Positions 33,014 to 38,124 of a stretch of 64,000 bases of DNA are shown here, piece by piece (positions within the stretch are counted from its first letter, which is position 1; every line of letters begins with the position of its first letter). The notes under the pieces are model-generated. The model saw nothing but the letters and a program-made list of their open reading frames with translations. It did not search any database and was not told where the DNA came from. The translations under genes were made by a program, and so were the position numbers. The DNA comes from a virus (taxonomy: Duplodnaviria; Caudoviricetes), in the IMG/VR virus record IMGVR_UViG_3300020718_000009, positions 1 through 64,000 of that record, one strand, 5' to 3'.

Positions 33014-34033
33014 ATGTCAACAGTATTAATTAAAAATGGTGTGTATCGCAACAAAACAGTTCAAAATATTGCATTTACACTTGCTAAAGGTTATCAGACA
33101 GGCGTTAAAGGAGGCTACGTGACTGTAGAATCAGAAGGATATTTCGGAGAAGAATTCGATAAAGTTCGTATTAAAGTAAATTCAATAGAAGATATTGAGT
33201 TTACAAATGAATCAGTTCCAGTAGCAGAATTTGTTGCTCCTATTGTAACCCCTATAGAAACAGACGACGAAGTTATGGATCGCATTGAACAGCGATTTGA
33301 AATTTTACAGCAAATGACTCGTGCTACTATTTCAGGTGACGTTCGTGCGATGATTGTAGTTGGTCCTCCGGGTGTAGGTAAAAGTTACGGTGTAGAATTT
33401 GAACTTGAGAAATCAGGTTTGTTTGATAAGATTTCAGGTAAAAAAATTAAGTACGAAGTGGTTAAAGGGGCAATGACTCCGATTGGATTGTACTGTACCC
33501 TTTATCGTCATAGTGACGCTAACAACGTTTTAGTGTTTGACGATTGTGATTCGGTATTCCAAGACGAGTTATCCTTAAATATTCTTAAAGCCGCCCTTGA
33601 CTCTGGCAAGAAACGTAAGATTTTTTGGAATTCAGATTCAGCTATGCTACGCCGCGAGGGAGTTCCTGACCAGTTTGATTTTAAGGGCGGAGCAATTTTT
33701 ATTACCAACCTTAAATTTGAAAACATTCAAAGTAAAAAAATGAAGGATCACTTGGAAGCATTGCAATCACGTTGTCACTTTTTGGATTTGACCTTGGATA
33801 CGATGCGTGATAAGTTTTTGCGTATTAAACAAATTTTCCGCCAAGGACAACTGTTTAGAGATTACGACTTTAGTCCAGAAACAGGTGAAAACATTCTAGC
33901 ATTTATGGATGCTAATCAAACTAAACTACGCGAAATGTCGTTACGTATGGCATTAAAGTTAGCTGATTTAACTAAAGTATCAGAAGAAAATTGGAAGTCT
34001 TTAGCCTCGGCAACTTGTATGAAGAATGTTTAA
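33014..34033 (+). CDS. AAA-family ATPase
   Basis: GPPGVGKS, LVFDDCD, FITN, ALQSRC. Confidence 0.85.
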   Translation: MSTVLIKNGVYRNKTVQNIAFTLAKGYQTGVKGGYVTVESEGYFGEEFDKVRIKVNSIEDIEFTNESVPVAEFVAPIVTPIETDDEVMDRIEQRFEILQQMTRATISGDVRAMIVVGPPGVGKSYGVEFELEKSGLFDKISGKKIKYEVVKGAMTPIGLYCTLYRHSDANNVLVFDDCDSVFQDELSLNILKAALDSGKKRKIFWNSDSAMLRREGVPDQFDFKGGAIFITNLKFENIQSKKMKDHLEALQSRCHFLDLTLDTMRDKFLRIKQIFRQGQLFRDYDFSPETGENILAFMDANQTKLREMSLRMALKLADLTKVSEENWKSLASATCMKNV

Positions 34034-34253
34034 TAAATTAAAACAACAAGCCGGCATTCAGGACAATCCAGACCAAGAAGGATTAGACTTGTTTGCCGAG
34101 TTAATTGTGCGGGAATGTGTTAGTGTTACTGATGATTTAGTAAATCGTAATGTAGATGGCAGTTGGACCAGCAATGAACTATACACAGATTACAATGGTG
34201 CTTTACATGAAGTTAAACGAAGAATTCAAGACCATTTTGGAGTTGCGGAATAA
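34026..34253 (+). CDS. Small hypothetical protein, FAELIVxEC family
   Basis: LDLFAELIVREC; paralog of 34955..35218. Confidence 0.65.
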   Translation: MFNKLKQQAGIQDNPDQEGLDLFAELIVRECVSVTDDLVNRNVDGSWTSNELYTDYNGALHEVKRRIQDHFGVAE

Positions 34254-34295
34254 AGATGTACCAACAGAAATTGAGGACATTAGAGGAAAAACATT

Positions 34296-34484
34296 ATGAA
34301 TACAATTTATCCAACAACCACGATTGAATCACAAGGCCTTCAATACGCTTCAGTAATTGATATGGGTGATAAGGTGAGAATACAACTGTATCCTAACCAA
34401 GTGAATAAAACAATGTTTATTAATATTGATAAACGAGTGGTATCTGAATTGATTAGAGCTTTAGAGAAAGTGGAGCAATGGTAA
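34296..34484 (+). CDS. Small hypothetical protein
   Basis: VRIQL...IDKR..LIR.LE shared with 34780..34953. Confidence 0.65.
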   Translation: MNTIYPTTTIESQGLQYASVIDMGDKVRIQLYPNQVNKTMFINIDKRVVSELIRALEKVEQW

Positions 34485-34783
34485 TGAACGCAAATGAACT
34501 AGCTGATGAATTGGATATTCATGTGTCAATGGGGCAGAGTAAGTTTTTTAAAGAGTGTGCCGAAATGCTACGCCAGCTACAAAAGGAACGAGACCGGCTG
34601 TTCTCGGCACACTCACACGAAATGGTTCGAGCAGATGAATTGGCAGTTGAGAATGAATTATTAAAAGCTAAATTAGCACAAGCAGATCGGGTATATGATT
34701 TTGATAATCCGTTATTAGATGTATGTAAACATGGAAATGATAGTGCTTGTAAAGAATGCTACCTGGAGGCAGTAAAGAAATGA
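34478..34783 (+). CDS. Small coiled-coil hypothetical protein with C-terminal CKHG...CKEC
   Basis: ORF coupled to neighbours. Confidence 0.6.
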   Translation: MVMNANELADELDIHVSMGQSKFFKECAEMLRQLQKERDRLFSAHSHEMVRADELAVENELLKAKLAQADRVYDFDNPLLDVCKHGNDSACKECYLEAVKK

Positions 34784-34953
34784 TCACGATCAATGGCCCA
34801 ACAGGTCTGCCGTATCTATCAGTATCAGACAATAAAGACGCCGTTCGAATCCAATTACACGCCTACGATGATATTGGTCCATATTACCTGACCATAGACA
34901 AGCGAGCACTACCTGATCTAATAAGAACACTGGAACAATACGAAGGATATTGA
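34780..34953 (+). CDS. Small hypothetical protein
   Basis: Paralog of 34296..34484; ATGA overlap with upstream gene. Confidence 0.6.
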   Translation: MITINGPTGLPYLSVSDNKDAVRIQLHAYDDIGPYYLTIDKRALPDLIRTLEQYEGY

Positions 34954-34954
34954 T

Positions 34955-35218
34955 ATGAACAAGCGGATTCGACAACTTGCCCTTGATGCTGGTATAGGAT
35001 TTACCTTATGGGACGATAGTGGCAGAGAAATGATTGACAACTATACTCCTGAAGAAGACTTGGAAAAGTTTGCCGAGCTAATTGTTAAAGAATGTGCTGA
35101 ACTAGCATATAGCTATAACATTTATGGTAAAGGGCGAGCCTGGAATTTAATTATTAAGGAACATTTTGATTTACCCATTACAGATACAGATTTACCACCA
35201 TATTTAAGAAATTTGTAG
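34955..35218 (+). CDS. Small hypothetical protein, FAELIVxEC family
   Basis: MNKRIRQLA...LEKFAELIVKEC. Confidence 0.65.
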   Translation: MNKRIRQLALDAGIGFTLWDDSGREMIDNYTPEEDLEKFAELIVKECAELAYSYNIYGKGRAWNLIIKEHFDLPITDTDLPPYLRNL

Positions 35219-35280
35219 TATTCAACTGATGTTGGATATACACAAAGTAGCTCCTGAACTGTATAAACAGTTCATTTTAT

Positions 35281-35312
35281 ACAGATACCTATAAAACGGT
35301 ATCTGTTTTTTT
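35281..35312 (+). terminator. Rho-independent terminator, followed by uvsW promoter TTGACT-18-TACAAT (35311-35340)
   Basis: ACAGATACC-loop-GGTATCTGT then T run. Confidence 0.75.
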
Positions 35313-35347
35313 GACTTATCTTAATTAAATATGCTACAATAGCAATA

Positions 35348-36379
35348 ATGCGAACAGCTACAATTATAATACGCGACGAGGTTAATATCAAAATTGAAGG
35401 TCTTGAGCTTGACGCACGACGAAAATTAGTTAATACCTTTAAATATGATGTACCCGGGGCTCGTTATTTACCGGCGGTTAGACTTGGTCGATGGGATGGT
35501 AAGGTATCTTATTTTCAACTGGGCGGAAGTACCTTTACAAATTTACTGCCAGAAATTATTCCTATATTAGAAAGTTTTAACTATGATATCATACTTGATG
35601 ATCAGCGTGATTATTCTACTAATTTTGTTTTTGAGCGAGTAAACGAAGATACATTTATTCATATTAATTGGGGGGCCGGCCACCCGATGGAAGGCCAGCC
35701 AATTAAATTGCGAGATTATCAAGTTGAAATCATTAATAATTTTTTAGAAAATCCTCAATCAATTCAGGAAATTGCCACCGGAGCAGGCAAAACTATTATG
35801 ACTGCGGCACTAAGTCAACGATGTGAACAACATGGTAGGACTATTGTAATTGTTCCCAACAAGTCATTAGTAACACAAACAGAAAAAGATTATCGCGGAT
35901 TGGGGTTAGATGTCGGCGTTTTCTTTGGTGATCGTAAAGAATTTGGAAAAACGCACACAATTTGTACTTGGCAAAGTTTAAATATTTTGCTTAAAAATAC
36001 AAAAAATTCTACAGCAGAAATTACAATTCAAGATTTTCTTGAAGATGTAGTATGCGTAATGGTTGACGAGTGTTTTACTGCTGATAGTAAAGTTTTAACA
36101 CCTTCGGGATATGTAGCAATCAAAGATATTAAAGCGGGCGATACAGTTATTAATTATTCAGAAGATACAAAAGAATTTAAGACCGACATCGTAGTTAAAC
36201 AGCATATAAATTTAACCAATTCCTCTAGTGAAAAAATGTACAATTTGGAGTTCGATAATGGAAGTAAAATACAAGTTACTGGAAACCATAAATTTTTAAC
36301 TAACGATGGATGGATACGGGCAGATAGATTGACAAAAAATCACGAAATAGTTTATACTAGTATAAATACAGTTAACTAA
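35348..36379 (+). CDS. uvsW: UvsW SF2 helicase N-extein fused to split-intein N-fragment (IntN, 36071-36376)
   Basis: LRDYQ, ATGAGKT, then VDE|CFTADSKVLT (intein block A) and VTGNHKFLT (block B), then stop. Confidence 0.92.
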   Translation: MRTATIIIRDEVNIKIEGLELDARRKLVNTFKYDVPGARYLPAVRLGRWDGKVSYFQLGGSTFTNLLPEIIPILESFNYDIILDDQRDYSTNFVFERVNEDTFIHINWGAGHPMEGQPIKLRDYQVEIINNFLENPQSIQEIATGAGKTIMTAALSQRCEQHGRTIVIVPNKSLVTQTEKDYRGLGLDVGVFFGDRKEFGKTHTICTWQSLNILLKNTKNSTAEITIQDFLEDVVCVMVDECFTADSKVLTPSGYVAIKDIKAGDTVINYSEDTKEFKTDIVVKQHINLTNSSSEKMYNLEFDNGSKIQVTGNHKFLTNDGWIRADRLTKNHEIVYTSINTVN

Positions 36380-36392
36380 AGCGAAAGTATTT

Positions 36393-37295
36393 ATGAAACA
36401 GTCAGCCCAACAAATGATAGATCGATTTAACGCTAAGATGATAGATCATAATCAACTTACCAGAGTTATTGCGTATTCGGGTAACAGTATAACGTTATCG
36501 ACGGGAGTAACTTTGATTGATAATGATAAAGATAGGTTTTGCAGAAGATTATTAAGCACTAAAACTATATTATGGGTTAGTAACATTGATAACTTACTAA
36601 ACGGGTCAATCACTACTAACGAGATTAAGGCTAAGTTATCCTCTATTGGTGGCAACGCAGTTCAGGAAAAATATGGAGATATAATTAAACAAAACCTTAA
36701 TACTGGTACTCCGTGGAATGCTGGCACCAAAGGACAAAATATAGGCACACTCAGTCCTAGACCGCAATCAGTCAAAGATAAAATTAGTAAAAAAAATTCT
36801 GGTTCTAGCAACGGTATGTACGGTATTAAAATGTCAGTTGCTGATAAACAAGTAAGATCTGATATTATGAAAAAGAAAATATTAAACGGGGAATTTACCC
36901 CGAATAGTAATAATAGAAATACCCACTGGAATTCGACATTCGACGATAAGCCTTACCGATCAAGTTGGGAAGCGTTATACCAATTTATTAATCAATCTGC
37001 CGAATATGAAACATTGCGAATCGAATATAATTTACAAGGTATCACAAAAGTCTATATAGTTGACTTTGTGGATCATCAAAACAAAATAGTAGCCGAAGTT
37101 AAACCGCGTGAATTATGTGTGGGCGAAAAATTTAACTCAAAAATTATGGCATTGCACGAGTGGGCAAAAATAGCAGGATATACTGTGACTATAGCTGATC
37201 AAGATTGGCTACGATTGCAAAATATAGATATTGATTACTCACGTTTTGATGACAATACAGCAAGAAAAATTAAAGCATTATATGAAACTAATTAA
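36393..37295 (+). mobile_element. Free-standing homing endonuclease (NUMOD3-like repeats plus PD-(D/E)xK/TnsA-like domain) between the uvsW halves
   Basis: PWNAG, KISKKNSG..N.MYG, YRSSWE, YIVDF....AEVKP; TATAAATA at 36361. Confidence 0.8.
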
Positions 37296-38124
37296 AAAAA
37301 CTGAAATAACTAAACCGGCAGAAGTATATAATTTACATATAGAAAACAATCACAACTATGTAGTAGACGGGGCAGTAGTATCAAATTGTCATATGGCAAA
37401 AGCCGATGCCCTAAAAAATTTAATGACAACAGTAATGAGTCGTGTTCCAATTCGATGGGGGCTAACAGGGACAATACCTAAAGAAGCATTTGAATTCCAA
37501 GCACTTAAAATAAGTTTAGGGCCAGTTATTAACCAACTTGCTGCTAGTGAGCTACAAGAACGGGGAGTATTAGCGCAATGCCATGTTAATATTGTTCAGT
37601 TAATAGACCACGCAGAATTTACAAATTATCAATCAGAATTAAAATTTTTATTAGAAGACTCAGATAGACTTGAGACTATATCCAAACTAGTGGCACAAGT
37701 TAATGCCACTGGCAATACTCTTGTACTAGTAGACCGTGTAGCTGCCGGACATGCTCTAGTGTCATTGTTAGGAGACCATGCTGTATTTGTAAGCGGGGCA
37801 ACAAAAGGAACAAAACGAGATGAAGAATATGATGAAATTGCGACAAGTACTGGAAAAATTATTGTGGCTACCTATGGTGTTGCTGCTGTTGGTATTAATT
37901 TACCCCGTATCTTTAATCTTGTTCTTATTGAACCTGGTAAATCTTTTGTGCGAGTTATACAGTCGATTGGTCGCGGTATACGCAAAGCAGAAGACAAAGA
38001 CCATGTAGAAATCTGGGACGTAACCTCTACTTGTAAGTTTGCACGACGACATTTAACCAAACGCAAACAGTTTTACAAGGAAGCTAACTATCCATTTACT
38101 CAAGAAAAATTGGAGTGGAAATAA
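37282..38124 (+). CDS. uvsW: Split-intein C-fragment (35 aa) fused to UvsW C-extein
   Basis: MKLIKK...VYNLHIENNHNYVVDGAVVSN|CHMAKA; helicase motifs GLTGT, GINLP, QSIGRGIR. Confidence 0.92.
   Translation: MKLIKKTEITKPAEVYNLHIENNHNYVVDGAVVSNCHMAKADALKNLMTTVMSRVPIRWGLTGTIPKEAFEFQALKISLGPVINQLAASELQERGVLAQCHVNIVQLIDHAEFTNYQSELKFLLEDSDRLETISKLVAQVNATGNTLVLVDRVAAGHALVSLLGDHAVFVSGATKGTKRDEEYDEIATSTGKIIVATYGVAAVGINLPRIFNLVLIEPGKSFVRVIQSIGRGIRKAEDKDHVEIWDVTSTCKFARRHLTKRKQFYKEANYPFTQEKLEWK

Follow-up and report, generated by a model that had tools for sequence, protein, structure and literature searches.

A UvsW-type helicase gene of an uncultured jumbo phage is predicted to be fractured at motif II by a split intein and a free-standing homing endonuclease gene

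A helicase locus at positions 35348-38124 of a 64,000-nt viral DNA stretch (Duplodnaviria; Caudoviricetes; positions 1 to 64,000 of IMG/VR record IMGVR_UViG_3300020718_000009), hereafter called the window, was analyzed computationally. The locus is read as a fractured UvsW-type helicase gene carrying a mobile cassette at motif II, which consists of a class-1 split intein, predicted from its sequence to splice in trans, and a free-standing homing endonuclease gene. We put the probability of this reading at about 85%. The arrangement is of the known "fractured gene" kind, and what is new here, as far as the literature searched shows, is the host gene with its insertion site and the nuclease type, which has not been described in such a role. 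An earlier reading of the DNA made without database searches (the sequence-only reading) had proposed a split intein in a fractured uvsW gene, and this proposal was borne out by the complete set of catalytic residues, the repetition of the layout in other phages, purifying selection, and recent mobility.

Organization of the fractured helicase locus

Three tightly packed open reading frames (ORFs) were found on the + strand at 35348-36379 (343 amino acids, aa), 36393-37295 (300 aa), and 37231-38124. They were divided into the following features, in which IntN and IntC denote the N- and C-terminal halves of the putative intein.

35348-36070, + strand: N-extein, 241 aa, N-terminal domain and motifs I to II of a UvsW-like superfamily 2 (SF2) helicase, ending in VMVDE
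36071-36376, + strand: IntN, 102 aa, starting with CFTADS, with Cys1 (block A), TGNH (block B), and an unconserved tail of about 5-8 last residues
36393-37295, + strand: free-standing homing endonuclease gene (predicted), 300 aa, with its own ATG and in a frame different from that of IntN
Within the nuclease: N-terminal domain, NUMOD3-like motifs at about residues 100-160, and a C-terminal PD-(D/E)xK domain at about residues 173-284
37282-37386, + strand: IntC, 35 aa, with block F His24-Asn25, penultimate Ser, and terminal Asn35, ending in VVSN
37387-38124, + strand: C-extein, 245 aa plus stop codon, consisting of the +1 Cys and the rest of motif II (CH, in CHMAKA), motifs III-VI, and the helicase C domain
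36068-37447, strand not assigned: recently transferred block, containing IntN, the nuclease gene, IntC, and about 60 nt of the C-extein, delimited by the 60-nt identity profile against the related contig L005

The boundaries of both intein halves and of the intervening 300-aa gene agreed with those described in the sequence-only reading, and the +1 Cys was located at 37387. The IntN stop codon occupies 36377-36379, and the IntN of relatives stops at 97 to 102 aa. A 13-nt spacer separates this stop codon from the nuclease ORF, and the ATG of IntC (37282) lies within the 3' end of the nuclease gene, producing a 14-nt overlap. The in-frame stretch upstream of this ATG, which extends from a TTG at 37231, was excluded from IntC because relatives have a stop codon directly before the conserved Met.

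Sequence features of the intein halves

Both intein halves matched established intein models. IntN matched TIGR01445 (intein_Nterm) with an E-value of 2e-10 and 41.5 bits (cut-off 24.5), and IntC matched TIGR01443 (intein_Cterm) with an E-value of 5.6e-5 and 23.2 bits (cut-off 15.6). The Pfam model Intein_splicing was matched with an E-value of 5.6e-9, with profile positions 17-93 in the first ORF and positions 119-155 in the third ORF. In an alignment of 13 relatives, Cys1 (36071, directly after VMVDE), N72 and H73 of block B, and M1, H24, N25, and N35 of IntC were invariant, and T70 of block B was nearly so. The +1 Cys was present in all occupied alleles dissected. The sequence contains these class-1 hallmarks: the block A nucleophile, block B TxxH, block F His, C-terminal Asn, and +1 Cys.

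A HINT fold is suggested at the level of sequence by the Pfam and TIGR models and by the end-to-end alignment of a contiguous relative of this intein with solved mini-inteins. The closest solved HINT domains were the mini-inteins of Spl DnaX (7cfv) and Npu DnaB (4o1r), to which the contiguous relative aligned over its full length. The match to Spl DnaX was remote (E 5.4e-9), and these mini-inteins sit in other host proteins at other insertion sites.

Purifying selection acts on both halves of the intein. The ratios of nonsynonymous to synonymous substitution rates (dN/dS) calculated by the Nei-Gojobori method were 0.07-0.19 for IntN and 0-0.16 for IntC, and low intein values were also obtained for pairs in which both members are split (window-L011, L016-L032, and L041-L043; L numbers denote the related viral contigs). 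Some extein segments, in which the ungapped codon windows had slipped at indels, were excluded from this calculation, so that the values used are those of the intein and of extein pairs free of such slips. An element that was dead or served only for docking would hardly be expected to retain its nucleophiles in this manner. One IntN copy (L049:2112-2370) had an internal deletion of about 12 residues, leaving 85 aa in total, which may reflect either decay of this copy or faulty assembly.

Host helicase and phage

T4 UvsW (1rif, 2oca) was the top PDB match for both helicase halves. The N-extein matched Pfam ResIII (E 1.5e-15), and its best solved-structure match, T4 UvsW, had an E-value of 1e-7. 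The C-extein matched Helicase_C (E 3.6e-7) and aligned with residues 234-476 of T4 UvsW (E 2.9e-16), the alignment beginning exactly at the Cys-His of residue 234. The match of the N-extein to Pfam UvsW_N was weak and under the cut-off (21.3 vs 25.3 bits), and the protein was therefore regarded as a UvsW-like helicase of a jumbo-phage clade, about 25% identical to the T4-type protein.

The nearest deposited helicases, about 50% identical, were those of the jumbo phages Atu_ph07, PA5oct, and the 121Q group, and the matches stopped at the intein junction. The window sits on a 103-kb viral contig with an estimated completeness of 29%, and related viral contigs are up to 329-360 kb in length. The origin of the nearest helicases and the size of the related contigs identify the host of the cassette as an uncultured jumbo phage. 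According to Iyer et al. (PMC7824862), a UvsW-type helicase is among the features conserved in "group 2" jumbo phages. A megablast search of the locus against deposited phages revealed no near-identical phage.

The endonuclease encoded between the halves

The protein encoded between the intein halves had 446 homologues in the protein collection. Among 51 representatives of these homologues, TnsA-like_N was detected in 34 and NUMOD3 in 23, and E193, D224, E235, and K237 were invariant in all 51, which is the signature of PD-(D/E)xK nucleases. A structural model built from the single sequence had a predicted local distance difference test (pLDDT) score of 33, and the model rebuilt from the 51-sequence alignment had a pLDDT of 85. 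Residues 173-284 of the model matched restriction-fold nucleases only, namely TnsA (Z 7.8), Vsr (Z 5.8), VRR-NUC (Z 5.3), the I-Bth0305I catalytic domain (Z 5.1), and Hjc (Z 5.1). Fold matches with Z-scores of 5-7.8 are middling, yet consistent with the Pfam evidence. A Foldseek search of the model against the PDB gave no match at an E-value of 0.001 or better, and a search of PDB sequences with the family profile gave no chain at E-values up to 10. From its sequence and model, the nuclease is assigned to a type that combines NUMOD3 with a PD-(D/E)xK restriction-fold domain, in line with the endonuclease assignment in the sequence-only reading.

Membership of the Vsr-like EDxHD family, which is defined by a composite E-D-x-H-D active-site motif (PMC3239194), was considered for this nuclease and ruled out by its E...D...ExK active site with an invariant Lys.

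Many T4-like coliphages, as well as Yersinia and Salmonella phages (e.g., NC_031047, NC_054936, and HE956709), also carry a free-standing gene that is homologous to the nuclease domain (41-46% identical across residues 155-273) and either directly precedes the large terminase gene or overlaps it. In Campylobacter phages (e.g., NC_027996, 119087-119365 and 59705-60154), a related IntN with about 40% identity occurs in the ribonucleotide reductase alpha gene, and a nuclease homologue is located at another place, in a gene recorded as disrupted relative to phage CP220.

Occurrence of the same layout in other phages

Relatives were searched for with an alignment of IntN, and 62 viral contigs, 57 of which carried a clearly related IntN, were collected and dissected by script. 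About 45 viral contigs had the same order of IntN, stop codon, homologous 300-aa nuclease gene, and IntC, with an element length of 1281-1342 nt. Two of them (L004 and L005), which were derived from two other metagenomes, had a 1316-nt element with a stop codon and frames identical to those of the window. Finished genomes of T4-like phages in culture showed this layout as well, namely those of Salmonella phages S16, STP4-a, SEA1, and CF-SP2 and Proteus phage PM2, in which the three ORFs were annotated merely as DNA helicase, hypothetical protein, and DNA helicase. Two PHROGs families, phrog_16259 and phrog_9690, already contain the chimeric halves.

Mobility of the cassette and empty alleles

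A comparison with L005 in 60-nt windows showed 70-85% identity in the flanks and 95-100% identity in the element. The identity rose exactly at 36068-36071, where the first base of the intein is located, and dropped back about 60 nt past the +1 Cys. This sharp step shows that the whole cassette was recently transferred together with a short downstream co-conversion tract. On a longer scale, IntN of the window was 57-64% identical to those of S16 and PM2, whereas the exteins were just 21-26% identical. The far higher similarity of IntN than of the exteins points to a transfer in which the identical site was entered across a wide gap between phage lineages.

Among the 80 viral contigs whose N-exteins came closest to that of the window (72-90% identity), 78 had an intein-less helicase allele with DEVH at motif II and a GTN codon at the third position. 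All occupied alleles, in contrast, had DE|CH with a TGY codon. Since the native motif of this clade is DEVH and that of the spliced product would be DECH, the Cys travels with the intein. The sequence-only reading had expected splicing to restore DECH; the junction does read DECH, but this motif is native to T4-type UvsW and not to the clade of the window. The predicted spliced helicase differs by one motif II residue from the helicases of its own clade.

Stages of a proposed homing cycle among relatives

The relatives were found in several states: an empty site, a split intein with the nuclease gene, and several reduced or fused forms. In L023 (4031-5290), the IntN ORF had no stop codon and continued in-frame into the nuclease for 419 aa after Cys1, with IntC still separate. 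The nuclease was reduced to a stump of 68 codons in L033 and L035 and to a short 3' stump beside a split intein in L039, L048, L053, L056, and L057, and in L026 the IntN stop codon directly abutted the IntC ATG. In L006-L010, whose helicases were 87-90% identical to that of the window, the intein was a contiguous mini-intein of 139 aa. The linker of this mini-intein was the C-terminal tail of the nuclease (the last approximately 17 codons) read in another frame, and 16 of its 18 residues matched those of the window. The end-points of the deletion shared the pentamer TCACG, a microhomology.

In the intein tree, the contiguous forms were sister to the window plus L005 (support 91/91) and nested in a crown of split, nuclease-bearing forms, and at least four independent losses of the nuclease gene were required. 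Because the contiguous forms are nested among the split forms, the mini-intein is most likely a product of re-fusion. The gene-breaking model of Dassa et al. covers the loss of the nuclease gene and its in-frame capture and contains no re-fusion step (PMC2677866).

Taken together, these observations favor, with less assurance than the split-intein assignment itself, a complete and reversible split-intein homing cycle in which re-fusion would proceed through the TCACG deletion and homing would rewrite DEVH to DECH in every invaded allele. On the same footing, the split and contiguous pairs, together with the 50-plus variants lacking the penultimate His, would form a new and probably orthogonal Cys1/Cys+1 ligation family.

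In L048 (1793-5215), as well as in L046 and L047 and probably in L060, the same helicase was found in three pieces. In these relatives, a second, different split intein interrupts the Walker A P-loop (GAGK|C ... HHN|T). This intein had an atypical split between blocks A and B, with an IntN of about 39 aa and an IntC of about 141 aa, and its own different nuclease gene, which encodes 338 aa and is Vsr/DUF559-like by eye. The middle protein of this arrangement consisted of the IntC of one intein and the IntN of the other.

Proposed mechanism and alternative explanations

In the proposed mechanism, the three ORFs, with their 13-nt gap and 14-nt overlap, would be packed as one operon and presumably co-transcribed. 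Two polypeptides, N-extein-IntN and IntC-C-extein, would be produced. The intein halves would pair into a HINT domain and splice in trans, giving a 486-aa helicase whose motif II reads DECH. When relatives co-infect a cell, their DEVH alleles without an intein are the most likely targets of the nuclease, and repair of the cut would copy in the whole cassette, including the +1 Cys codon.

Several findings weigh against this mechanism. Two auxiliary class-1 residues are absent from the window, the penultimate His being replaced by Ser and the block F Asp by Asn (VYN, where the solved intein of Spl DnaX has VYD); both residues are present in the Spl DnaX and Npu DnaB mini-inteins. Because both are missing, splicing could be slow. 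In addition, the hairpin that Dassa et al. report ahead of the nuclease gene has only a weak counterpart in the window (-5.7 kcal/mol, z -0.6), compared with z-scores of -2.3 in S16 and -2.1 in L050. The block F position is Asp in most class-1 inteins, and this residue and the penultimate His are common auxiliary residues that do not define the class. Chen, Benner and Perler are said to have found in 2000 that inteins without the penultimate His are still able to splice. The sequence-only reading had pointed out the penultimate Ser in place of the usual His. The Ser was confirmed, but it is no oddity of this copy: the residue is S, A, T, E, or Q in the jumbo-phage copies and His only in the T4-like copies (S16 and PM2), and since the position varies freely among the jumbo-phage copies, the Ser is regarded as a family trait.

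The absence of the penultimate His and the block F Asp would also fit a non-splicing clasp, in which the intein halves hold the two parts of the helicase together non-covalently and never join them by a peptide bond, a type of assembly shown for NrdA of phage Aeh1. We consider this improbable, as Cys1, the terminal Asn, and the +1 Cys are all present and invariant, and the contiguous sister form in L006-L010 can yield a working helicase only via splicing. The strongest argument for rejecting the clasp is that the intein brings its nucleophile along: at the +1 position, every occupied allele has Cys and all 78 empty alleles have Val, and this two-base change would be pointless for a mere clasp. 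Somewhat less probable still is a decaying gene, in which insertion of the nuclease gene abolished helicase function and left pseudogene fragments that now drift. The interruption itself and the deletion within IntN of L049 are compatible with decay, but all three ORFs are intact in the window, the dN/dS values of the exteins and the intein are far below 1, and the layout is kept across lineages with saturated synonymous sites. Moreover, the gene that would be lost belongs to the conserved core of this group of jumbo phages (PMC7824862).

As the window was assembled from a metagenome, false frameshifts could in principle have broken up an intein that is in fact contiguous and contains the nuclease as an in-frame domain. 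The nuclease ORF, however, has its own ATG after the 13-nt spacer and lies in another frame, and the same 1316-nt element, stop codon, and frames were recovered in L004 and L005 from two other metagenomes. The layout also recurs in about 40 further contigs and two finished genomes of cultured phages, and its repetition in independent contigs and complete genomes excludes an assembly or sequencing artefact for practical purposes. The trans-splicing split intein with a free-standing nuclease gene therefore remains the preferred explanation.

Comparison with known systems

The fractured genes described by Dassa et al. in 2009 encode gp41, IMPDH, DnaE, NrdA, NrdJ, ligase, and terminase (PMC2677866). 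The layout of the window corresponds to these genes, as the sequence-only reading had stated for the gp41, NrdJ, and IMPDH split inteins. As in gp41-1, NrdJ-1, and IMPDH-1 (PMC2677866), a phage gene for DNA metabolism is cut at a conserved catalytic motif, and the intein is split at the canonical site into an IntN of about 100 aa and an IntC of about 35 aa. In agreement with the model of Dassa et al., the halves are separated by a free-standing nuclease gene that extends at its 3' end over the start codon of the next ORF. Unlike in those systems, the host is a UvsW-type SF2 helicase interrupted at motif II, and the nuclease is of the NUMOD3 plus PD-(D/E)xK type, whereas theirs are GIY-YIG, HNH, or Vsr-like EDxHD nucleases. 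The intein of the window family gave no match to gp41-1 and a marginal match to NrdJ-1 (E 2.8e-4). It also differs from the gp41-1/NrdJ-1/IMPDH-1 kind in pairing Cys1 with a +1 Cys and in having no penultimate His.

The closest counterparts in cultured phages were gp114/gp114.1/gp115 of S16 (NC_020416) and gp180-182 of PM2 (NC_055727), which form a homologous three-ORF cassette at the identical DE|CH site of uvsW. Their nucleases were 35-41% identical to that of the window. Unlike in the window, the host gene in S16 and PM2 is a true T4-type uvsW with a native DECH, and the intein has a penultimate His.

The nuclease resembles I-Bth0305I (PMC3239194; PDB 3r3p) in having a NUMOD-type DNA-binding region followed by a C-terminal restriction-fold nuclease, and the two folds overlap as noted above. 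Like I-Bth0305I and the EDxHD family, it is of a kind that occurs in phage introns and fractured genes. It differs from I-Bth0305I in its active site and in having TnsA as its best fold match. In Aeromonas phage Aeh1, a phage gene is likewise split by a homing endonuclease gene (nrdA-a/mobE/nrdA-b); unlike in the window, this arrangement contains no intein, and the NrdA halves assemble non-covalently (PMC3045599).

The sequence-only reading named no characterised UvsW example, and UvsW is not among the hosts listed by Dassa et al. A full-text literature search, which did not cover subscription journals, found no paper pairing "split intein" with UvsW, and of the papers in this search that mention both intein and UvsW, none places an intein in uvsW. 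No paper calling the S16 and PM2 cassettes a split intein was found in the literature search.

Other features of the region

One further feature was recorded within the locus.

36329-36358, + strand: putative promoter-like site with 11 of 12 consensus positions, within the 3' end of IntN and 35 nt upstream of the nuclease ATG

The total count of promoter-like sites across the region did not exceed that expected from shuffled sequence. Just ahead of the start of the helicase gene (35348), two terminator-like hairpins (35255-35274 and 35281-35306) were followed by a promoter-like site at 35311-35340 with an extended -10 TG. A run of small ORFs at 34026-35218, upstream of the helicase gene, contained two pairs that look paralogous by eye: the ORFs at 34296-34484 and 34756-34953 have the common pattern "...VRIQL...IDKR...L...LIR.LE...", and those at 34026-34253 and 34955-35218 have "FAELIV.EC" in common.

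Elsewhere on the contig that carries the window, outside the window itself (G000:C1:100817-101038, - strand), and in L147 (1096-2154), a weak intein-N/Hint match was obtained with an E-value of 0.002, below the cut-off. The match lay in the C-terminal half of a 352-aa repeat-rich protein encoded among tail-fibre-like genes. It probably represents a Hint-type autoprocessing domain that is unrelated to the helicase intein.

Discussion

Protein ligation relies mainly on natural split inteins, of which, to our knowledge, only a few families have been characterised. The predicted helicase intein belongs to a diverse family, represented in about 57 viral contigs and in cultured Salmonella and Proteus phages, that is far from gp41-1, NrdJ-1, and DnaE. 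Its window-type copies are predicted to splice although they lack both the penultimate His and the block F Asp. The natural split versions, the split versions without a nuclease gene, and the contiguous versions differ by defined deletions and provide a series for studying splicing speed, splitting, and its reversal.

For the phages themselves, the results point to a selfish cassette that moves between very distant lineages, T4-like and jumbo. On entering a new host gene, this cassette would impose the replacement of one residue in a catalytic motif, the DExH box, of a core helicase of recombination.

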